Part shown: in pieces, positions 1,921 through 64,000 of the stretch | Position numbering within the stretch: the first letter of the stretch is position 1 | Layout of the letters: each line of letters opens with the position of its first letter | NCBI GenBank assembly: GCA_947627465.1 | Contig: CANQWD010000001.1 | Location: 16,561 to 80,560 of the forward strand | Source: an uncultured Clostridia bacterium | GTDB taxonomy: Bacteria > Bacillota > Clostridia > Oscillospirales > Ruminococcaceae | Reading direction: 5' to 3' | Length of the DNA: 64,000 bases | The notes under the pieces: model-generated | What the model saw: the letters and a program-made list of their open reading frames with translations, nothing else | What the model was told of the DNA's origin: nothing | Databases searched by the model: none | Position numbers and translations under genes: made by a program

Positions 1921-3297
1921 ATGCCAAAAAGCAAATCGGTTTTTATTTGCCGCGAGTGCGGCGCGGAATATTCAAAATGGAACGGAAAATGCACTGCCTG
2001 CGGCGCGTGGAACACCTTGGAGGAGACCGTTCCGGTAACGGTGGGCACAGGCAAAGCCGCGCCGATAGGCTCGTTTAAATATTCACGGATAAGCGAGATA
2101 AGCTACGATGACGAAACGCGCTACGACACGGGAATTTCCGAGCTTGACAGGGTTCTCGGCGGCGGTTTGGTGAAAGGCTCGCTTGTTTTGATTGGCGGCG
2201 ACCCGGGAATAGGGAAGTCCACGCTGCTGCTGCAAATATGCGGATTTATGGGTAAAGATCACACGATATTTTATGTCTCGGGCGAGGAGAGTGAACGCCA
2301 GATAAAGCTTCGCGCGGAGCGGCTGGGCGTGGCTTCGGAAAACCTTTTTTTAGCGTCGAACAACAACTGCGAAAGCATTATCAGAGCCGTTTGTGAAAAC
2401 AAGCCCGAGATCGTTATCATTGACTCCATACAGACGATAACTTCAAGCGCCCTGACTTCAACGGCGGGAAGTATCGTTCAAGTTCGCGAGTGCACGGGCG
2501 CGTTTATGCGAATGGCGAAGTCCGAGGAGATACCCGTGTTTATCGTGAGCCACGTCAACAAGGACGGCGGTATCGCGGGTCCGAAAATAATGGAGCATAT
2601 CGTTGATACCGTGCTGTATTTTGAGGGCGAAAAACAGTTGGCTTACCGTATTCTCCGCGCGATAAAGAACCGTTTCGGCTCTACTAATGAGATAGGCGTG
2701 TTTAGAATGGACGACGACGGACTCACCGAAGTCGAAAACCCGAGTGAAATGATGCTGTCGGGCAGGCTTAAAAACGTTTCGGGAAGCGCGGTGGTGTGCG
2801 CTATGGAGGGCACTCGTCCGATACTCGCCGAGGTTCAGGCGCTTGTTACCAAATCAAGCTTCACAAGTCCTCGCCGCGTGGCTACGGGATTTGACTACAA
2901 CAGGCTTTATATGATACTCGCGGTTTTGGAGAAGCGCTGCGGGTTCGCGTTCGGGGGACTGGATGTTTACGTGAATATTGTCGGCGGCTTGAAGATCGAC
3001 GAGCCTGCCGCAGATCTCGCGGTTGCTATGGCTCTGTGGTCGGGACTGTGCGACAAGGCAATCCCCGAGGACTTGCTTGTATTCGGCGAAGTCGGCTTGG
3101 GCGGAGAGATACGCTCGGTGAGCCGCGTTCACGAGCGCGTTAAAGAGGGAGCGCGGCTCGGCTTTACGAAATGCGTTATCCCGAAGCACTCGTTCAGAGA
3201 GCTTTCCAAAACCGATAATTACGGCATTAAGATAATCGGCGCGGACACCCTTTCGGGCGCGTTTAAGGCAATCGGGGCAGGGGATAATTTAAAATGA
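1921..3297 (+). CDS. radA: DNA repair protein RadA/Sms
   Basis: N-terminal CxxC..CxxC zinc finger, GGDPGIGKST Walker A, KNRFG motif, Lon-like C-terminus; ATG 1921 preferred over TTG 1909. Confidence 0.96.
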   Translation: MPKSKSVFICRECGAEYSKWNGKCTACGAWNTLEETVPVTVGTGKAAPIGSFKYSRISEISYDDETRYDTGISELDRVLGGGLVKGSLVLIGGDPGIGKSTLLLQICGFMGKDHTIFYVSGEESERQIKLRAERLGVASENLFLASNNNCESIIRAVCENKPEIVIIDSIQTITSSALTSTAGSIVQVRECTGAFMRMAKSEEIPVFIVSHVNKDGGIAGPKIMEHIVDTVLYFEGEKQLAYRILRAIKNRFGSTNEIGVFRMDDDGLTEVENPSEMMLSGRLKNVSGSAVVCAMEGTRPILAEVQALVTKSSFTSPRRVATGFDYNRLYMILAVLEKRCGFAFGGLDVYVNIVGGLKIDEPAADLAVAMALWSGLCDKAIPEDLLVFGEVGLGGEIRSVSRVHERVKEGARLGFTKCVIPKHSFRELSKTDNYGIKIIGADTLSGAFKAIGAGDNLK

Positions 3298-3656: not shown

Positions 3657-3984
3657 TGTGAATATTACCAAATTTTGATTTGGCGGTTTGTATAAATCTA
3701 CAAAAAATTCTACTCTATAAATGTTTTTTTGTAAAAAGATATACACTTATTAGAAAAAAGATGTATAATATTTTTGAGAAATGTTTTTGATACGGCTGTT
3801 TATTTGTTTGCCCTACCGCGGGGGGATACAGAGTTTTTTACAGTTTGTATTAAGAAACGGAATTCTCAATAAAAATGAAAAGAGGGATAAATATTTTTTT
3901 AACGGCGCAGCAAAATGTTTTATATGGTAATTATTTATTGAAGTGCGGGAATTAACTTTTCCGCGAAATTCGGGGGGTATTTTT

Positions 3985-15487: not shown

Positions 15488-18121
15488 CTAATTTAAAATT
15501 GCGTTCAGTAGGCTTGCCGCGAAATGTTTTACCTCGATATTATCCGCAATTTCCCATAATCTCGACGTGCATACTACGCCGCCGTTTCTATATAACAGCC
15601 CAAGCCGCGCGGCGCGTTCGGGGTTGTCTATCACCCAAACGTCGGGCGCGATCTCCGTGCCGTCCAAATTCGACGAAAAGCTGTGCGTTACGATATTGTA
15701 CCAAATAGGCTCCGTGTGAGCCGCGCATGGGAAGTCTTTCAGCAGTTCGCTTTCCGTATCGGGCAGAAGTCCGAGCGTTCCCGTCGGAATTGCCTTTCCC
15801 ATACTTTCCGAAATGGACTTGAACATTCCGTAGCACCAGAAGTCCGTACAATATTCGCCGCGAAGATCGTTTTCGCTCGGATACGGTATGCAGAGCGCGT
15901 TTTCGCGGGGCTTATCGTGCACTATCGGTAGGTTTTTTCCGTTGTACGTTATCTCGTTTTCCGTGATCTTAACGTCGATATTCGGATAAACGTACAGCGT
16001 GTATATATTGACAAATTCTCCCGCGTTAAGTTCAAGCGTGGCTGTTATGGGCTTTGTGCAGTTCAGCTCGAAAAAAGCGTTTTCGGCTCTCGCTATGCGC
16101 CCGTCAAACGCACCGACCGCGCTTTTGCCCTTTGCGAGGACTTCTCCGTTCGCCGTAACGCGCCATTCTATCTCGCGGATATCGACGTTCGGCGCGGTAT
16201 TCGAGACAAGCAGACCGCAGGTTATTTTCTCGCAGCTTGTGAAAACGAATTTCGGAAGCTCCGCAAGCAGTACCGTATCATTGCAGAATTGCCGCCACTC
16301 GCCCGGCTCTATCAAACCTTTGCTTTCCATAAACGCGTTGAGAATGCCGACCGCGGCTATTCCCTGACCGGGAAAATCCTGTATGTCCAGAAGCTGAAAT
16401 CCCGACATTTTTCCCGAACGCAGAGCCGCTTCTATCTCGCGGCGGTAACACTCTACGGAAAGCGCGCCGCTTGCCTTGAAAAATTTCTCGGCGTAAGGCA
16501 GTAAACCCTTTTCGGAGGCTGTTTTGCGGTATTTCTCATAAGCGAAATGCCGCAAAGAGCCTTTGTAAGAAGCAATCTCGCCGTAATCGGGATAGGTGTA
16601 ATACTGCCCTATCTCGTGCGAGATCACGGGAACGTCGGGAATGAGAACACCGCCGCTTTCGCCTTGCACCTTTTTCATTTCGGTGCCATATTGTATCATT
16701 ATTTCGCCGCCTTGCTCGGCGGACGTTTCAAACTTTGGGGAGAACGTGTTATCGTAATCGCGAACGCTGTTCGGGCGCTCCGTTTGAACGTGTCCGAACG
16801 GAACGTCGCACGACGCGTAGCCCCCGCGAATTTGACGGTCTATGTCAAAGCGCACGCCGCTGAAGAAGTCGTCGTTTTCGAGAATGCACGGCACCCACTG
16901 GAAGTTGTTAGAGCCTTGCGTGTACAATTTATCGGGGAAATCGCGTTTGTACTCGCCGAGCAAAGAATTCAGCGCTTCGCGGCTGCCCCAAAGCTCGTTG
17001 CCCATTGACATCATCACAAAAGACGGGTGACGACCGAATTCGCGAAGAATACGAAATCCCTCGGTTTTCAGGAACTCAAATTCCGTGTTCGGCTTATCGG
17101 GTATCGTTCCCCAGAACGGCAGTTCGGGCTGCAAATAAATTCCGAGAATATCCGCCGCCGCAAACGCCGCTTCGGGAGGACAGCAAGTGTGAAAACGGTA
17201 GTGGTTTATTCCGTATTCCATAGCGGTTTTAAACACATCAAGCCAGCTTTCGACATCCGTCGGCGCGAAACCCGTTTTGGGGAAGACCAAGCCGTCGTGT
17301 TTTCCGCGCAGAAACGTTTCGTTGCCGTTTATCAAGAGTTTTAAACCGTCCGCTTTGAACTCGCGTAAACCGAATTTCACAACGCGCGTATCATTGTCGA
17401 TCTTAATTTCCAAATTCAGCAAATTCGGCGCGAACTCGCTCCATTTCGGAGCGTTTTCCGAAAGTTTTACCGTGCATTTGAGCGTATTGGAGAAAACCGC
17501 CGTTTCTTTGCCGAACTCAAACTCGTCGTTGTAAATCCTGAGGTGCGCCGTGCCGCGTTGTTCTCCTAAAATATCTGCTTTTACCGTTACCGAATTTTTA
17601 GAAATATCGGACGTTATCTGAATAAATTCGGGGTAAGCGTCGTAACTCAACAGCGCGATGTTTCCCGTTATTCCGTTCCAATTGGTCTGCGTATCGGGAG
17701 AAGTGAGGTGCCCGCCTTTTGTGGGGTAATCGGTGTTGTCTACCCGAACTATAAACTCGTGCTCGCCCTCCGAAAGCCCGTTCAACGAATATCTGTGCCG
17801 CGCGCATAAGGAACAGTACTCGCCGATCTTCGCGCCGTCAACGAACAGCGCGGTCTTGCGGGTGCGCTCTAAAATGAGCATAAGGTTTTTCTCCGCCATT
17901 TCGCGCGTTATCGTTATTTTTCGGCAAAACCACGCGTACCCCTCAAATTTGTATAGGTCGGTAAGGCAGCCGTCGTTCTTCTCCGAATTTCGTTTTTCGA
18001 GCCGCGAGTTTGAGGTAGTGTTCGGCAACGTGATTTTGTCGGGGAACGCTTCGGGAAGCGCTTCGGACTTTGTTTCGTCAAGGAAAGCGTGCCACTCTCC
18101 GCTAAGATCGGTGTATGTCAT
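15488..18121 (-). CDS. Glycoside hydrolase family 2 (beta-galactosidase/beta-glycosidase-like)
   Basis: N-terminal sugar-binding domain, NHYRFHTCCPP, HPSFVMMSMGNE acid/base, PVISHEIGQ nucleophile. Confidence 0.85.
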   Translation of the reverse strand: MTYTDLSGEWHAFLDETKSEALPEAFPDKITLPNTTSNSRLEKRNSEKNDGCLTDLYKFEGYAWFCRKITITREMAEKNLMLILERTRKTALFVDGAKIGEYCSLCARHRYSLNGLSEGEHEFIVRVDNTDYPTKGGHLTSPDTQTNWNGITGNIALLSYDAYPEFIQITSDISKNSVTVKADILGEQRGTAHLRIYNDEFEFGKETAVFSNTLKCTVKLSENAPKWSEFAPNLLNLEIKIDNDTRVVKFGLREFKADGLKLLINGNETFLRGKHDGLVFPKTGFAPTDVESWLDVFKTAMEYGINHYRFHTCCPPEAAFAAADILGIYLQPELPFWGTIPDKPNTEFEFLKTEGFRILREFGRHPSFVMMSMGNELWGSREALNSLLGEYKRDFPDKLYTQGSNNFQWVPCILENDDFFSGVRFDIDRQIRGGYASCDVPFGHVQTERPNSVRDYDNTFSPKFETSAEQGGEIMIQYGTEMKKVQGESGGVLIPDVPVISHEIGQYYTYPDYGEIASYKGSLRHFAYEKYRKTASEKGLLPYAEKFFKASGALSVECYRREIEAALRSGKMSGFQLLDIQDFPGQGIAAVGILNAFMESKGLIEPGEWRQFCNDTVLLAELPKFVFTSCEKITCGLLVSNTAPNVDIREIEWRVTANGEVLAKGKSAVGAFDGRIARAENAFFELNCTKPITATLELNAGEFVNIYTLYVYPNIDVKITENEITYNGKNLPIVHDKPRENALCIPYPSENDLRGEYCTDFWCYGMFKSISESMGKAIPTGTLGLLPDTESELLKDFPCAAHTEPIWYNIVTHSFSSNLDGTEIAPDVWVIDNPERAARLGLLYRNGGVVCTSRLWEIADNIEVKHFAASLLNAILN

Positions 18122-53581: not shown

Positions 53582-53610
53582 TTGACTTTTTGCGGAAATC
53601 GTGATATAAT
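53582..53610 (+). promoter_or_regulatory. Strong sigma-A promoter upstream of the XRE-CPBP insert and eno
   Basis: TTGACT, 17 bp, TG-N-TATAAT. Confidence 0.78.
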
Positions 53611-53734
53611 TTTTTATTGGGAACTATATCGATAAATTATCACTCTACCAATGGTTGATTTCTCCCCACTCAACCATCGGTTCGTGTACTTTGTCGCGAT
53701 AATCGTCTATACTGAAAGTGAAAGGAGGCACACT

Positions 53735-54361
53735 ATGGATCAAGTGAAAATCGGAAAATTCATTGCTGAGCGGAGAAAAAAGTCTAACTTGACACAAATG
53801 CAGTTGGCAGAAAAACTGAACATCACCGATAGAGCGGTATCAAAATGGGAAACGGGAAAATCAATGCCCGATACATCCATTATGCTTGAACTGTGTGATA
53901 TTCTCAAAATTACCGTTAATGATTTGTTATGTGGGGAGGTCGTTACTGTGGATAACTACAACAGAGAATTAGAAAACAACTTACTTGAGATTATTAGTCA
54001 AAAAGAACAAGCGGATAAAAGATTGCTGATAACAGAAATCGTTCTGGGAATTATATGTTTAATTCCATTGACGGCTGCTGTGGTCTTTGCAGCTGTAATG
54101 CCGTTGGAGGAATGGATTAAAAATATTATTCTTATCGCGGGCATTATTCCCCTGCTTGCCGCAACGCCTTTTGCAATAAAAATCGAGCAAAACGCAGGCT
54201 ATTATGAATGTCGGAAGTGCGGACACATACATATCCCTCAATACAGCAGTGTATTCTTAGCTATGCATATAAACAGAACAAGATATATGCGCTGCCCAAA
54301 GTGCGGTAAAATGTCATGGCAGAAGAAAGTATTGCACAATGAAGAATCAGGTTCTACTTAA
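53735..54361 (+). CDS. XRE-family HTH regulator with TM helices and a C-terminal zinc ribbon
   Basis: IGKFIAERRK..TQMQLAEKL..VSKWETGKSMPD; two TM segments; CRKC...CPKC; AAAGGAGG RBS. Confidence 0.88.
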   Translation: MDQVKIGKFIAERRKKSNLTQMQLAEKLNITDRAVSKWETGKSMPDTSIMLELCDILKITVNDLLCGEVVTVDNYNRELENNLLEIISQKEQADKRLLITEIVLGIICLIPLTAAVVFAAVMPLEEWIKNIILIAGIIPLLAATPFAIKIEQNAGYYECRKCGHIHIPQYSSVFLAMHINRTRYMRCPKCGKMSWQKKVLHNEESGST

Positions 54362-54374
54362 AGGCGGGGGCAGT

Positions 54375-55160
54375 ATGAAAAATTACATTAAAGCATATTG
54401 GAAAACTCTTTTATTTTTCGCTGTGATAGGTTTTATCGGTGGTTTCTTCACGGGAATATACGCCTGGGAGGACTTTCCCGAAAACACAAAACAACAATAT
54501 CTTGAACAAATAAATGCCGGCGGTCTCGGTCAATTTCCCGCCGATATTATTGTGGGCATCAGTACGGCGATCCAAACTGCCGTCGTTTATGGCATCGTGT
54601 TAGGCGCAATAGGCATTTGGCTCGGAAAGAAAACAGGACTTTGGAAAGACGAAAAAAACATAACAAAAAAGCCTTTGGCAGCTTCTCTTGTCGTTGCCGT
54701 GGTTGGTGGTCTTGCATTGATTTTAACCGATGTGCTGTTCTTTGGAAATCATTCTGAGGCAGTTATGAATACCTATGTAGAAAAACCGACTATTCCGTAT
54801 CTGTTGGCAACTGTAACCTATGGTGCAATTATTGAAGAAGTAATGATCAGACTTTTCTTTATGTCACTAATTGCGTTTGTTCTTCATAAATTATTTGGTA
54901 AGAAACACGATAAACCGACAGTTGCAATTTTAATTGTGGCGAATGTGTTTGCGGCAATTTTGTTTGCCGCAGGACACCTTCCTGGAACCGCTCAGACGAT
55001 AGGTCTAACGCCAATAATAATCTTTAGATGTTTCCTGATGAATGGCGGCTTTGGTTTATTGTTTGGTTGGTTGTATAGAAAATACGGTTTGCGTTATGCG
55101 ATGATTGCTCACGGCGGATGCCATATTGTATCAAAGTTAATTTGGATTTTGTTCATATAA
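54375..55160 (+). CDS. CPBP (CAAX/Abi) family intramembrane metalloprotease
   Basis: IIEEVMIR (EExxxR), FAAGH, AMIAHGGCH; multi-TM. Confidence 0.88.
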   Translation: MKNYIKAYWKTLLFFAVIGFIGGFFTGIYAWEDFPENTKQQYLEQINAGGLGQFPADIIVGISTAIQTAVVYGIVLGAIGIWLGKKTGLWKDEKNITKKPLAASLVVAVVGGLALILTDVLFFGNHSEAVMNTYVEKPTIPYLLATVTYGAIIEEVMIRLFFMSLIAFVLHKLFGKKHDKPTVAILIVANVFAAILFAAGHLPGTAQTIGLTPIIIFRCFLMNGGFGLLFGWLYRKYGLRYAMIAHGGCHIVSKLIWILFI

Positions 55161-55254
55161 CTTCCGATTTATCGACAACTTCAATAAATCATAATGCTCC
55201 CCAAATACCGAATGAATAATTCTCCAAAAAAGAGAAATACTACCTCTAAAATAA

Positions 55255-56571
<1,317 letters not shown>

Positions 56572-59157: not shown

Positions 59158-61248
59158 TTGGCTGATCTAGTAATTCTGGAGTCGCCGTCAAAGGCGAAAA
59201 CCGTTAAAAAATATTTGGGCGCGGGTTATGACGTTATGGCTTCAACGGGGCATATCATAGACCTGCCGAAAAGCAAGCTCGGCGTGGACGTGGAAAATAA
59301 TTTCACGCCGCAGTACGTCAATATGAAAGACAAGGCGGACGTTATCAAGGAGCTTAAAAAGCGCGCCAAATCCGCCGACGTCGTTTATCTCGCGACCGAC
59401 CCGGATAGAGAGGGCGAAGCTATCGCGTGGCATTTGTCGCATTTGCTGAACATCGACGAAAAAGCGCCCGTTCGCGTGACGTTCAACGAAATAACGAAAA
59501 CTGGCGTGCAGTACGGAATGAGCCACCCGCGCACTATCGACCCCGATGTGGTGAACGCTCAGCAGACGCGCCGTATTCTCGACAGAATAGTCGGTTATAA
59601 GCTGTCGCCGTTTTTGTGGAAAAAGGTTCGCAGAGGACTTTCGGCGGGGCGCGTTCAGTCCGTCGCGGTGCGTATTATCGTAGACCGCGAGGAGGAGATA
59701 CGCGCGTTTAAAACCACCGAATACTGGAGTATTGACGCGAAATTCTCGGCAAATTCTTCCAAGAAAACTTTCGCGGCGAAGCTCGCTGAAATAGACGGTG
59801 AGAAAGCGAAGATAGACAACAAGGAACAAGCCGACGCTATTCTCGATAATCTTAAAGGCGCGGATTTCGTCGTTACCAACCTCAAAAAGTCGCAGAGAAA
59901 GAAACAGCCCGCGCCGCCGTTCACGACTTCCACTTTACAGCAGGAAGCAAGCCGCCGCTTGTCGTTTCAAGCGCGGAGAACCATGAAAGCGGCTCAGGAG
60001 CTTTACGAGGGCGTTGATGTTGAGGGCACGGGCGCGGTCGGACTTATTACTTATATGAGAACCGACAGTCTGCGTATTTCCGACGAAGCGAAAACCGCCG
60101 CCGCCGAACTCATCAAGAACACCTACGGCGCGGAGTATCTTCCCGAAAAGCCGAGGACGTTCAAGTCCAAAAGCAACGCTCAGGACGCGCATGAAGCTAT
60201 CAGACCCACCAACGTCGAGTTCACTCCCGAGAAAGTGAAAAAGTCGCTGACAAGCGACCAGTTCAAGCTGTATAAACTCATCTGGGAGCGCTTTATGGCA
60301 AGCCAAATGGCGAACGCCGTTATGGATACCGTTTCCGTTGAAATTACCGCGAAAAACTGCCTGTTCAAAGCGAGCGGATATTCCGTCAAGTTCGACGGCT
60401 TCACCAAACTTTACGAAGAAAGCCGAGACGACGACGAAAAGGGGGGCGCTCTGCCGAAAATAGAAAAAGGCGAAACGCTGAAATGCGCGGAAATTCTCGG
60501 AAATCAACACTTTACTCAGCCGCCCGCGCGCTATAACGAAGCGTCGCTTATCAAGGCTTTGGAAGAAAACGGTATCGGTCGTCCGTCCACTTACGCGCCG
60601 ACTATTTCCACAATCCTTGATCGCCATTATGTGGAGCGCGAAACGGGTAATCAACTCAAGCCCACGTCTCTCGGAGAGGTAATAACGGGGCTTTTGAAAG
60701 ACAAGTTCAATAATATCGTTGACGTAAAATTCACGGCGAAAATGGAAAGCGACCTCGACGATATCGAAAAGGGCGGCAAGGATTGGGTCGCAACGCTCGA
60801 CAAGTTCTATAAGGGCTTTTCAAAGTCGTTGGAACAGGCGGAACATGATATGGAGGGCAAGCACCTTAAAGTCCCCGACGAGCCTACCGACGTAATCTGC
60901 GAAGAATGCGGAAAGCCTATGGTAATAAAAATCGGACCTTATGGAAAATTCCTTGGCTGTTCGGGTTTCCCCGAGTGCAAGTTCACGAAAAAGATAGTCA
61001 CCGAGACCAAAGGTCTTTGCCCGAAATGCGGCGCGAAAATGCTCCTTAAAAAGTCTAAGAAAGGCAAGCCGTTCTACGGCTGCGAAAACTACAAGGACTG
61101 CAACTTTATGACGTGGGATATGCCTTTGGAAGAAAAGTGCCCCGAGTGCGGTTCCAGCCTGTTTAAAAAAACGGGCAAATTGGGCAAGATATATTGCGCG
61201 AAAGAGGGCTGCGGTTACGAGCGTCCTCTCGATAAGGAGAGTAAATGA
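59158..61248 (+). CDS. topA: DNA topoisomerase I
   Basis: LVILESPSKAKT, LATDPDREGE, SAGRVQS, LITYMRTDS, QDAHEAIRPT, C-terminal zinc ribbons; GGAGG RBS before TTG 59158. Confidence 0.97.
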   Translation: MADLVILESPSKAKTVKKYLGAGYDVMASTGHIIDLPKSKLGVDVENNFTPQYVNMKDKADVIKELKKRAKSADVVYLATDPDREGEAIAWHLSHLLNIDEKAPVRVTFNEITKTGVQYGMSHPRTIDPDVVNAQQTRRILDRIVGYKLSPFLWKKVRRGLSAGRVQSVAVRIIVDREEEIRAFKTTEYWSIDAKFSANSSKKTFAAKLAEIDGEKAKIDNKEQADAILDNLKGADFVVTNLKKSQRKKQPAPPFTTSTLQQEASRRLSFQARRTMKAAQELYEGVDVEGTGAVGLITYMRTDSLRISDEAKTAAAELIKNTYGAEYLPEKPRTFKSKSNAQDAHEAIRPTNVEFTPEKVKKSLTSDQFKLYKLIWERFMASQMANAVMDTVSVEITAKNCLFKASGYSVKFDGFTKLYEESRDDDEKGGALPKIEKGETLKCAEILGNQHFTQPPARYNEASLIKALEENGIGRPSTYAPTISTILDRHYVERETGNQLKPTSLGEVITGLLKDKFNNIVDVKFTAKMESDLDDIEKGGKDWVATLDKFYKGFSKSLEQAEHDMEGKHLKVPDEPTDVICEECGKPMVIKIGPYGKFLGCSGFPECKFTKKIVTETKGLCPKCGAKMLLKKSKKGKPFYGCENYKDCNFMTWDMPLEEKCPECGSSLFKKTGKLGKIYCAKEGCGYERPLDKESK

Positions 61249-62555
61249 CAGTAAAAGTTATCGGCGCGGGTCTGGCGGGGTGCGAGGCGGCTATGCAGTT
61301 GGCAAACCGCGGATTTTCCGTGGAGCTGTACGAAATGAAGCCCGTGAAGTTTTCTCCCGCGCATAAATACGAGGGCTTTGCGGAGCTTGTGTGCTCAAAT
61401 TCGCTGAAAGCCGCACGGGTGGACAGCGCGTGCGGACTTCTCAAAGAGGAAATGCGGCGCTTGGGTTCGGTGATCTGCGAGGCGGCGGCGAAAACCGCCG
61501 TTCCCGCGGGCGGAGCTCTGGCGGTCGAACGTTACGCTTTCTCGGACGAGGTCACGCGTATTGTCAAAAGTCACCCGAACATTACGGTTATCGAGGGCGA
61601 AGTTTGCGAATTTCCCGAGGAAAACGCGGTTATCGCGACGGGTCCTTTGACTTCGGACGCGCTTGCGGATAAGATACGCGAAAAGTGCGGAGATTATCTA
61701 AGTTTTTACGACGCGGCGGCTCCGATAGTTACCGCCGAGAGTATCGACTTTTCGATAGCGTTCGAGCAGTCGCGTTACGACAAAGGCGGCGCGGATTACG
61801 TCAACTGCCCGTTCAGTAAAGAGGAGTACGATGCGTTTTACAACGCGCTGATAAATGCCGAGGGCGCTCCGCTCCATGAGTTTGATAAACCGGAAGAGAG
61901 TGCGGGCTTGCGCGTTTACGAGGGCTGTATGCCCGTTGAGGTTTTGGCAAAGCGCGGTTATGACAGCGTTCGCTACGGCTGTATGAAACCCGTCGGACTT
62001 ATCGACCCGAGGACGGGTAAACGTCCTTTTGCTGCGGTTCAGCTTCGGAAAGAGAACGTTGAGGGTACGCTTTATAATCTCGTGGGATTTCAGACGAACC
62101 TCAAATTCGGTGAGCAAAAGCGTGTGTTCTCGTTTATCCCGGGACTTCAAAACGCGGAGTTCGCGCGGTACGGGGTTATGCACCGAAACACGTTCTTGTG
62201 CAGTCCGCGCTTGCTGGACGAGCATTTTATGCTTAAAGGCTCAAAAAACGTATTCTTTGCGGGTCAGATGACGGGAGTTGAGGGCTACGTTGAAAGCGCG
62301 GCTTCGGGCATTGCGGCGGGGCGTGCTTTGGCAGATATTCTCGACGGCAAACCGCCGATAACTTACCCGAAAACCACAATGATAGGCGCTCTTTCGTGGT
62401 ATGTGGCGAACGCATTTCCCGAAAATTATCAGCCTATGGGCAGCAATATGGGCATTCTGCCGCCTCTTGAGGAGAATATACGCGACAAGAAACTGAAGTA
62501 TCAGCGGCTTGCGGAGAGGGCTATTGGGGATTTGGAAAAGGCGCTTTGCGTGTAA
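61245..62555 (+). CDS. trmFO: FAD-dependent tRNA (uracil-5)-methyltransferase TrmFO
   Basis: VIGAGLAGCEAA, ELVCSNSL, GFQTNLKFGEQ, AGQMTGVEGYVESAASG. Confidence 0.96.
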   Translation: MTVKVIGAGLAGCEAAMQLANRGFSVELYEMKPVKFSPAHKYEGFAELVCSNSLKAARVDSACGLLKEEMRRLGSVICEAAAKTAVPAGGALAVERYAFSDEVTRIVKSHPNITVIEGEVCEFPEENAVIATGPLTSDALADKIREKCGDYLSFYDAAAPIVTAESIDFSIAFEQSRYDKGGADYVNCPFSKEEYDAFYNALINAEGAPLHEFDKPEESAGLRVYEGCMPVEVLAKRGYDSVRYGCMKPVGLIDPRTGKRPFAAVQLRKENVEGTLYNLVGFQTNLKFGEQKRVFSFIPGLQNAEFARYGVMHRNTFLCSPRLLDEHFMLKGSKNVFFAGQMTGVEGYVESAASGIAAGRALADILDGKPPITYPKTTMIGALSWYVANAFPENYQPMGSNMGILPPLEENIRDKKLKYQRLAERAIGDLEKALCV

Positions 62556-62584
62556 ATCGAAATTTGTTGAAAGGAGATACTATT

Positions 62585-63257
62585 GTGAATATAGAGGAGC
62601 AATTTAACCTAATAGCTAAAGAATATGATTGTAATCGTAGAAAATTTATTCCATGTTTTGATGATTACTATGAAAATTCAACAAAATTTATACTTTCAAG
62701 TATTAAGAAGCCCAAGAGTGTGTTGGATTTAGGTGCCGGAACAGGTTTGCTGTCTTATTATTGGTATGTGCAATGCTCGTCAGCGGAATATGTGTTGGTT
62801 GATATAGCGGACGAAATGCTTGGATATATCGAGAAAAAGATTTTTAGGATTAAACAACGTTCAACATAGAATAATGGATTATACAAAGGTACTTCCCGAA
62901 GAAGATTTTGATACTGTTATATCAGCATTATCCATTCATCATTTGGATAATGCTCAAAAAGAAAATTTATTTATAAAGATTTACAACATGTTGCCGGAGA
63001 AGGGAATATTGGTAAATTACGATCAGTTTTGCGCTGATACACCTGCGATGAATGATTGGTTTAATTCGTATTGGGAGAGTCAGTTATATTCCGGTGGATT
63101 GACTGAAAGAGATATTGAATTATGGAAAGAACGCAGAAAATTAGATAAGGAGTGTTCTGTTGAAGCAGAAATACAAATGCTTAACAGATGTGGATTTTCG
63201 GAAGTTAAATGTATCTATTCTTATCATAAATTTTCTGTAATTGTTGCAGTTAAGTAA
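62585..63257 (+). pseudogene. AT-rich class I SAM-dependent methyltransferase split by a +1 frameshift near 62819-62823
   Basis: ORF 62546..62869 carries VLDLGAGTG; ORF 62820..63257 continues DISRKRF...SALSIHHL; removing one base gives a single frame. Confidence 0.8.
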
Positions 63258-63316
63258 CTATTATCGCAGTCATAAATTCCAATTTACCGCATCATCAAAA
63301 ACATACGGAGGAGCAT

Positions 63317-64000
63317 ATGAAAATAGTAATTGACGGTTTCGGCGGCGACAACGCCCCCGACGAAGTATTAAAAGGCGCGGCTATGGCGGTCGAGGGTCTG
63401 GGGATTGAGGTAGCGGTGACGGGTGAGCTTGACAAACTCAAAGAACGTATGTCGGCGCTTAATATTCCCGAAAAGGGCATTGAACTTGTTGAAGCGCACG
63501 GCGTTATCACTACCGAGGACAACCCGCGTTCCATACTGAAAGGCAACGCGGGTACCTCAATGGGTGTGGCGTTCAATATGCTGAGCAAGGGAGAAGCGGA
63601 CGCGGTTATCTCGGCGGGAAGCACTGCCGCTATCGTGTTGGGCGGTACTATGATAGAAAAGCGCATTAAAGGCGTGAAGCGCACGGCTCTCGTGCCGCTT
63701 ATGCCCGCAGACGGCGGCGTTAAGTACGCGGTTTTGGACGGCGGCGCAAATTTGGACTGCCGCCCCGAAATGCTTCTGCAATTCGCGATACTCGGTTCTT
63801 GTTTTATGGAAACTACCATGGGAGTAAAAAATCCGCGCGTGGGGTTGCTCAACATAGGCACCGAGGACGAAAAAGGCAGAGAACTTGAACATGAAACGAA
63901 GAAGCTTCTTGAAAAAGCGCCGATAAATTTCGTGGGCTACATTGAAGCGCGTGAAGCGCCGCTCGGGGCAGTGGACGTTCTGGTCACGGACGGCTTCACG
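63317..64000 (+). CDS. plsX: Phosphate acyltransferase PlsX, 3'-truncated by the window
   Basis: Translated by eye: MKIVIDGFGGDNAP, ISAGST, LDGGAN, GLLNIGTEDEKG, GYIEARE; GGAGGAG RBS. Confidence 0.93.
   Translation, partial: MKIVIDGFGGDNAPDEVLKGAAMAVEGLGIEVAVTGELDKLKERMSALNIPEKGIELVEAHGVITTEDNPRSILKGNAGTSMGVAFNMLSKGEADAVISAGSTAAIVLGGTMIEKRIKGVKRTALVPLMPADGGVKYAVLDGGANLDCRPEMLLQFAILGSCFMETTMGVKNPRVGLLNIGTEDEKGRELEHETKKLLEKAPINFVGYIEAREAPLGAVDVLVTDGFT

Follow-up and report, generated by a model that had tools for sequence, protein, structure and literature searches.

What brings an AT-rich gene block into the spacer between two conserved neighboring genes, and what part, if any, do the short sequences at its ends play? 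The question is raised by a methyltransferase (MT) block lying between trmFO and plsX in a 64,000-nt stretch of contig CANQWD010000001.1 (GCA_947627465.1, an uncultured Clostridia bacterium of the Ruminococcaceae; positions 16,561–80,560, forward strand), referred to below as the window. An initial annotation had read this block, together with two other AT-rich inserts, as part of a gene-cassette system marked by the motif AAAT-N4-ATTT-RYCG. On sequence grounds, this motif forms the central part of a genuine 22-bp dyad, CCGRTAAAT-N4-ATTTAYCGG. Sites of this kind exist, they coincide with the points at which cargo genes change between species, and they are found again at another locus that is not homologous; the cassettes between them contain neither a recombinase nor a promoter. 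We consider it an even bet that the dyads are the junctions of small cassettes whose insertion or exchange depends on an enzyme acting in trans. Four cassettes were examined: in the window, the MT block and a block encoding an XRE-type regulator and a CPBP protease (XRE+CPBP), and, elsewhere, the cassettes in the enolase gene (eno) leaders of L097 and L178. L-numbers label individual loci or assemblies, the comparison set being 1.41 Mb of fetched related loci; whole-genome scans took in the 2.52-Mb draft genome to which the window belongs (52 contigs), and four same-species assemblies (L081, L082, L083 and L084) were compared.

The dyad has a 9-4-9 architecture or, read differently, 7-8-7 with inner ATAA/TTAT, and stretches to ~25 bp in one species; at the right site of L097 it is an almost perfect palindrome with a single mismatch. 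Its orientation follows from the spacers. The left and right 4-bp spacers are asymmetric and reverse complements of each other, with CGGA, CGGA and CGAA in left copies and TCCA, CCCA, TCCG and TCCA in right copies (consensus YGGA left, TCCR right). The initial annotation had described the flanking copies as direct repeats, an impression that arose because the dyad arms are palindromic; in each of the four cassettes, the ends align with a higher score inverted than direct (12 vs 7 for MT, and 10 vs 8, 12 vs 11 and 15 vs 11 for the others). The terminal inverted repeats match at 17/19 positions for MT (left site against the reverse complement of the right site, with one 1-base indel), 14/16 for L097 and 20/25 for L178. 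The right-site TAA doubles as the stop codon of the final cargo gene in three of the four cassettes. Presumably the dyad also resembles site I of the gamma-delta/Tn3 resolvases (…CCGATAA…TTATCG…), CodY boxes and Spo0A boxes, likenesses that we treat as leads only.

Individual sites were scored against a model built as the consensus of the L097 and L178 cassette ends, with two degenerate positions that also admit the window's MT-right variant, and the border p is the probability of an equally good match inside a 61-bp border zone. It amounts to ~0.0015 for the MT-right site and ~0.0016 for the CPBP-right site, ~0.01 for MT-left and ~0.25 for CPBP-left taken alone, as well as ~0.25 for the site at the window's C39 island; the joint border probability for both MT ends is of the order of 1e-5. 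The strict form TAAATYCCRATTTAYCG (at most 2 mismatches) occurs in the 1.41 Mb of related loci only at cassette ends, on both strands, and at MT-right, and the sole match without mismatch in the 2.52-Mb genome is again MT-right. The 18 bases ATAAATTCCAATTTACCG of MT-right are identical, 18/18, to the right site of L178, at a locus otherwise unrelated; what non-homologous sites have in common is confined to 18–22 bp. These observations bear on the view that the sites are chance likenesses among AT-rich intergenic sequences, picked post hoc, and that horizontal transfer brought in the inserts as DNA pieces unrelated to one another. Such a view draws on the loose motif, which does behave as chance predicts, and on the C39 and CPBP-left sites, which are individually non-significant. 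Against it stand the full identity of an 18-mer between non-homologous loci of different species, the absence of the strict form from the rest of the related loci and the small joint probability of the MT ends, so that we regard it as highly improbable as a general explanation. Chance is very unlikely for MT-right and CPBP-right; for the C39 site it stands.

The motif as first written fared less well than the dyad of which it is a part. The four 17-mers are found exactly at 62553–62569, 63273–63289, 55158–55174 and 3669–3685, the TAA at 62553 is the trmFO stop and that at 55158 the CPBP stop, and the C39-side site begins 12 bp past the stop codon of a DUF2809 open reading frame (ORF). AAAT-N4-ATTT-RYCG is not enriched: allowing one mismatch, the window has 4 matches vs 3.2 expected, and 43 of 100 shuffles reach 4. 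Across the 2.52 Mb, 126 matches correspond to the density of the window, and after removal of the four discovery sites ~5% of matches fall at composition borders vs a background of 6%. Significance was judged by dinucleotide-preserving shuffles; permuted-motif controls gave fewer matches and were not relied upon because permuting a motif alters its dinucleotide content. The idea of a single family of four sites has to be cut to three, since the C39 site (3669–3685) has 7 mismatches in 18 positions to the refined model, as expected at random, and lies outside the site family. The postulated dispersed system shrinks likewise to two such blocks in the genome. What remains of the proposed short, trans-acting recombination sites is a specific dyad bordering promoterless, recombinase-less cargo in transcribed spacers with the flanking genes intact; the loose motif itself was too permissive to carry that claim.

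The cassette sites are best seen in context at the second locus, the leader of eno, where three species carry three unrelated cargos at one position. In the window, a strong sigma-70-type promoter on the plus strand (TTGACT-17-TATAAT, with TG; 53582–53610) follows the pheT terminator, is conserved in L097, L178 and L180, and sits upstream of both the XRE+CPBP cassette and eno. The left dyad, TCGATAAAT-TATC-ACTCTACCA (53629–53650), retains 8/9 positions of its outer arm and has a degenerate inner arm; it is orthologous to the CCGATAAAT-CGGA-ATT... site of L097 and L178. The cargo (53735–55160, plus strand, ~39% GC) encodes an XRE-type helix-turn-helix protein with a zinc ribbon and a membrane segment (53735–54361) and a CPBP/Rce1-like intramembrane protease (54375–55160), whose TAA stop codon lies in the right dyad, CATATAACT-TCCG-ATTTATCGA (55154–55175); exactly at this site the flank conserved with L097 and L178 restarts. 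L097 represents a related species (TrmFO 91%, PheT 94% and Eno 97% identical) with a different cargo, a 161-residue membrane protein, in its pheT–eno spacer. Conservation of its left flank stops directly after CCGATAAAT, and its conserved right flank restarts at the cargo stop codon, within the perfect motif copy TAAATCCCAATTTATCG. L178 (Eno 96% identical) has a third cargo between CCGATAAATCGGAATTTA and TAAATTCCAATTTACCGG, an arrangement common to 24 assemblies. This cargo (L178:3255–3865) is an AT-rich P-loop kinase-like gene (AAA_28/dNK-like) represented by overlapping ORFs of 103 and 102 residues, and may thus also be broken. In the three-way alignment of the window, L097 and L178, the promoter and the left flank as far as the left site are common, as are the eno leader and the right flank starting with the right-site TAA, and the cargos are unrelated.

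Two further features of this region were noted. A hairpin (tactacctc...gaggtagta) with a T run behind it, at 55238–55275, is conserved in the window, L097, L178, L179 and L180, that is, in all relatives examined; ending immediately ahead of the eno start codon, it sequesters the GGAGG ribosome-binding site and may control enolase at the level of translation or by attenuation. Upstream of the eno promoter of L178, at 3040–3115, lies a fragment resembling the last pheT codons and terminator, with no pheT gene there, and the whole eno leader module seems to have been relocated in this species.

As the three eno-leader alleles are orthologous, their sites are not mutually independent, and independent support for the cassette junctions rests mainly on the MT cassette. 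Here the upstream gene trmFO (61245–62555, plus strand) is conserved, its last few codons diverging from those of relatives, and its TAA stop codon lies in the left dyad, CGTGTAAAT-CGAA-ATTTGTTGA (62549–62570; 5 mismatches to the site model). The right dyad, GTCATAAAT-TCCA-ATTTACCGC (63269–63290), holds the shared 18-mer and is followed by the conserved plsX, of which the 5' part (63317–64000, plus strand) lies in the window. The block was correctly recognized as AT-rich, GC content changing from ~0.53 to 0.32 across it, and as a true insert: the order topA–trmFO–plsX is kept in 80 related genomes and MT is found in none of them. It contains no promoter-like site on the plus strand, as had been claimed, and no terminator either; because it has neither, the block would be read through from trmFO into plsX, and plsX is presumably transcribed by read-through across the cassette. 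The absence of a recombinase was confirmed too, among the MT, XRE and CPBP products as well as three scanned C39-island ORFs. In the 80 genomes, the trmFO–plsX spacer is usually 0–60 bp long, variable, and reaches up to 2.6 kb. The nearest other species (TrmFO 88–91% identical) have unrelated spacers, of 167 bp in L027 and L088 and of 580 bp with a 78-residue ORF in L085; all same-species assemblies compared carry the cassette, and a close enough empty allele could not be defined.

MT itself (62585–63257, plus strand, ~33% GC) is a pseudogene of a class I S-adenosylmethionine (SAM)-dependent methyltransferase whose family normally has 223 residues. Its start codon is GTG, preceded by a ribosome-binding site of its own, and one additional base near 62823 breaks the gene into ORFs of 94 (62585–62869) and 145 residues (62820–63257); the frameshift was located by alignment to two intact-length relatives with ~85–90% DNA identity. 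The cassette, frameshift included, is identical throughout in L081 and L082, and L083 and L084 show 0 differences inside it, each with a cluster of differences in a flanking gene. Because the frameshift recurs in independent same-species assemblies, we take it as a real pseudogene rather than an assembly error. Judged by its sequence, the MT cassette is an old, dead example, with a frameshifted gene, an indel in the left site and no variation in any fetched same-species assembly. If the L178 cargo is broken as well, two of the four bracketed cassettes would carry a damaged gene.

The extent of the unit is indicated by its relatives. DNA homology to the nearest MT locus elsewhere (L094, a Candidatus Coproplasma assembly) spans 62560–63286, which begins within the left site and takes in the right site to its end, so that the dyads delimit the MT unit or travel with it; other MT relatives, L090–L093, match merely 62572–63264. 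Decayed copies of both dyad ends flank the L094 gene, the sole hint that the module occurs in a different context. In this gene (L094:3839–4510, the closest MT relative on a long contig), the codon at the position of the second glycine of the SAM-binding motif is an in-frame TGA (LDLGA*TG), which would reflect an independent inactivation or, with lower probability, recoding of the stop. As a separate observation, protein P0002 (a cluster of 534 members) is an MT homologue with 88% identity that lacks the normal stop and continues as ...AVKWLFCHGKRNCLNT, its back-translation being compatible with a GGTAAACGGAATT-like dyad just downstream. In the trmFO–plsX spacers of L001, L004, L005, L017 and L085, which measure 100–580 bp, we noted an abundance of GC-rich palindromes with GCGAAGC-type mini-hairpins; these look like a separate repeat family that colonizes this spacer.

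Taken as cassette junctions, the sites would work as follows. Two dyad copies, inverted relative to their asymmetric spacer, would bracket each promoterless accessory-gene cassette and place it in a transcribed spacer just upstream of an essential gene, namely in the eno leader or between trmFO and plsX. The enzyme supplied in trans might be a site-specific recombinase acting on the palindromic core site, as in the dif modules of Acinetobacter, or equally a transposase for which the dyads are terminal inverted repeats, in the manner of mobile insertion cassettes. Candidates for such a role are many, the genome encoding 16 serine and 10 tyrosine recombinase-like ORFs (found by an iterative search seeded with two sequences; three of the ORFs were confirmed in Pfam as Resolvase or Phage_integrase). 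Among them are small serine recombinases on contigs C9 (34390–34959), C14 (16440–17069) and C2 (132115–132750) and an Xer-like tyrosine recombinase on C16 (48097–49182). Since three different cargos occupy the identical site in three species, site-specific exchange fits better than random transposition.

A number of observations weigh against this reading. Among the assembled sequences, to which the comparison was confined, we found no empty site, no excised circle, no inverted form and no second context for the same cargo, and in the fetched assemblies the bracketed segment always has one orientation. A classical site-specific recombinase would invert, rather than excise, a segment between inverted sites. 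Nor is there a clear target-site duplication: a TA at the ends of the eno-leader cassettes is a possible one at best, and the MT ends show nothing of the kind. The invariance of the MT cassette across L081–L084 means that it is not currently mobile among these assemblies, and between pheT and eno the slightly more distant L179 and L180 carry other genes and lack the site. The 52-contig genome has just the two cassettes, with no further inverted pair and no non-coding copy of the site, none of the 26 recombinase-like ORFs adjoins any site, and no autonomous element or insertion sequence with similar ends was found in the draft genome; the last point is a weak negative because draft assemblies often lose insertion sequences.

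It is also conceivable that the dyads never recombine and are functional elements of the eno leader, either hairpins (an mRNA-processing or stabilizing stem) or protein-binding palindromes (an operator pair), with the cargo turning over by illegitimate or homologous recombination and the MT block being a leader piece copied with its hairpins from another species. Every site could form a 9-bp stem with a 4-nt loop, nearly without flaw in the case of the L097 right site, and the sites lie in the 5' untranslated region and directly past stop codons, places where structured RNA elements are common. The good conservation of the flanks, which includes the hairpin over the eno ribosome-binding site, and the lack of any sign of mobility are in line with this explanation, too. 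What speaks against it most directly is that MT locus and eno leader cease to be similar precisely at the outer dyad edge on either side, which is unexpected for a copied leader. In addition, the eno-leader region has no match to an Rfam family, the aligned left and right copies show no compensating base changes (as inspected by eye rather than computed), and a DNA-binding protein is encoded only in the cargo of the window. On balance, we consider such a leader function, the leading alternative, unlikely, if worth keeping in sight. Were the dyad a leader hairpin only, a caution would still follow from the present case, namely that a loose AT-rich motif can fail its enrichment check and yet in part mark a real conserved element.

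The original proposal had been more specific, a direct-repeat, integron-like attachment (att) site AAAT-N4-ATTT-RYCG at four places in the window at which circular cassettes integrate. In its favor, the core TAAAT-N4-ATTT is common to three of the four sites, and the cargo is promoterless and positioned such that upstream genes retain their stop codons. However, besides the missing enrichment of the pattern and the chance-level C39 site, the spacers reveal the copies to be inverted, and simple insertion of a circle at an att site therefore does not fit. No site has any of the 26 recombinase-like ORFs beside it, with no search aimed at an integron integrase having been made, and there is neither an attC-like long palindrome nor an array. 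We thus regard this model as very improbable. The likeness to integron cassettes lies in promoterless single-gene units under an upstream promoter and in the overlap of the site with the end of the cargo ORF. Unlike them, the present units lack a site of the attC type, an imperfect palindrome of ~57–141 bp with paired core sites, as no longer palindrome was found at 63258–63316 or 55158–55275; also unlike them, they have no recombinase within or beside the inserts (no adjacent IntI or attI), and occur as single units with inverted sites at two loci.

The system is not an integron, and by analogy it would resemble Acinetobacter dif modules or mobile insertion cassettes more. In the plasmid dif modules of Acinetobacter, cargo lies between inverted pdif XerC/XerD sites and lacks a recombinase of its own, movement being ascribed to a host enzyme that acts in trans (PMC6449649, PMC13141974). 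The present cassettes are alike in that short inverted dyads bracket one or a few cargo genes, with no recombinase inside and varied cargo between like sites; by alignment, inverted flanking sites are seen in 4/4 cassettes, and none of the cargo products is a recombinase. They differ in the site, which is 9-4-9 (or 7-8-7) and has no TTATG-type XerD arm, whereas dif is 11-6-11, in their location in chromosomal operons of Clostridia rather than on Rep_3 plasmids, and in their number, two modules in this genome rather than arrays. A scan of the draft genome with the pattern ATAA-N6-TTATG yielded no convincing chromosomal dif with which the dyad could be compared. The concept of mobile insertion cassettes, first described in the Bacillus cereus group, is cited in two papers (PMC6542083, PMC4337579). 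Such elements, like those of the miniature inverted-repeat transposable element (MITE) type, share with the present cassettes the terminal inverted repeats of ~18–25 bp around passenger genes and the lack of an internal transposase. Unlike them, the present cassettes show no recognizable target-site duplication, and no parent insertion sequence with the same ends was found in the draft genome. Compared with invertons, the segments have one orientation in all fetched assemblies, and none of the 16 serine recombinases adjoins a site.

Beyond the cassette junctions themselves, a broader proposal can be made tentatively, although we doubt it more than we believe it: gut Oscillospiraceae may possess a chromosomal system of cassette exchange based on inverted pairs of an as yet undescribed 22-bp (9-4-9) dyad site. 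A host-encoded recombinase acting on these sites would swap accessory genes without promoters, such as those for immunity-type proteases, small-molecule methyltransferases and kinases, into the leaders of essential genes with high expression, and the system would be a Firmicutes chromosomal counterpart of the Acinetobacter dif modules. If the dyad does function in recombination, abundant gut anaerobes would have in it a minimal means by which accessory genes enter housekeeping operons with strong expression. Lacking both an integrase gene and an array, such a system would be invisible to current mobile-element finders, and small cassettes that today escape annotation pipelines could be searched for by the dyad. 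The logic of a module between inverted sites, with the enzyme in trans, would then reach beyond Acinetobacter plasmids.

Searches for further copies turned up several candidates that we rejected. Dyad matches at C31:3620, C3:3651, C32:16440, C48:591 and C1:1527 of the genome (contig:position) all lie inside long ORFs of normal GC content and are ascribed to chance. An inverted pair on C48 was judged likewise, its left member being inside an ORF and its right member not, with 3 mismatches per site. In viral contigs, 7 perfect-dyad matches are about what a rough hand estimate gives for chance (a few), and they look like ordinary terminator palindromes. Neither cassette matched anything in a plasmid collection. 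Scanning metagenomes with enolase was uninformative, as this returned only distant relatives (~80% identity) without pheT upstream, and a literature search by site sequence retrieved vector and primer coincidences only. The recombinase survey of the draft genome gave one further observation: about 11 of the ORFs have the size of large serine recombinases (~500–575 residues). They are located on contigs C20, C28, C30, C2, C9, C31 and C4, several of them in tandem, with three in a row beside a tyrosine recombinase on C30, which suggests multiple integrated elements in this 2.5-Mb genome.

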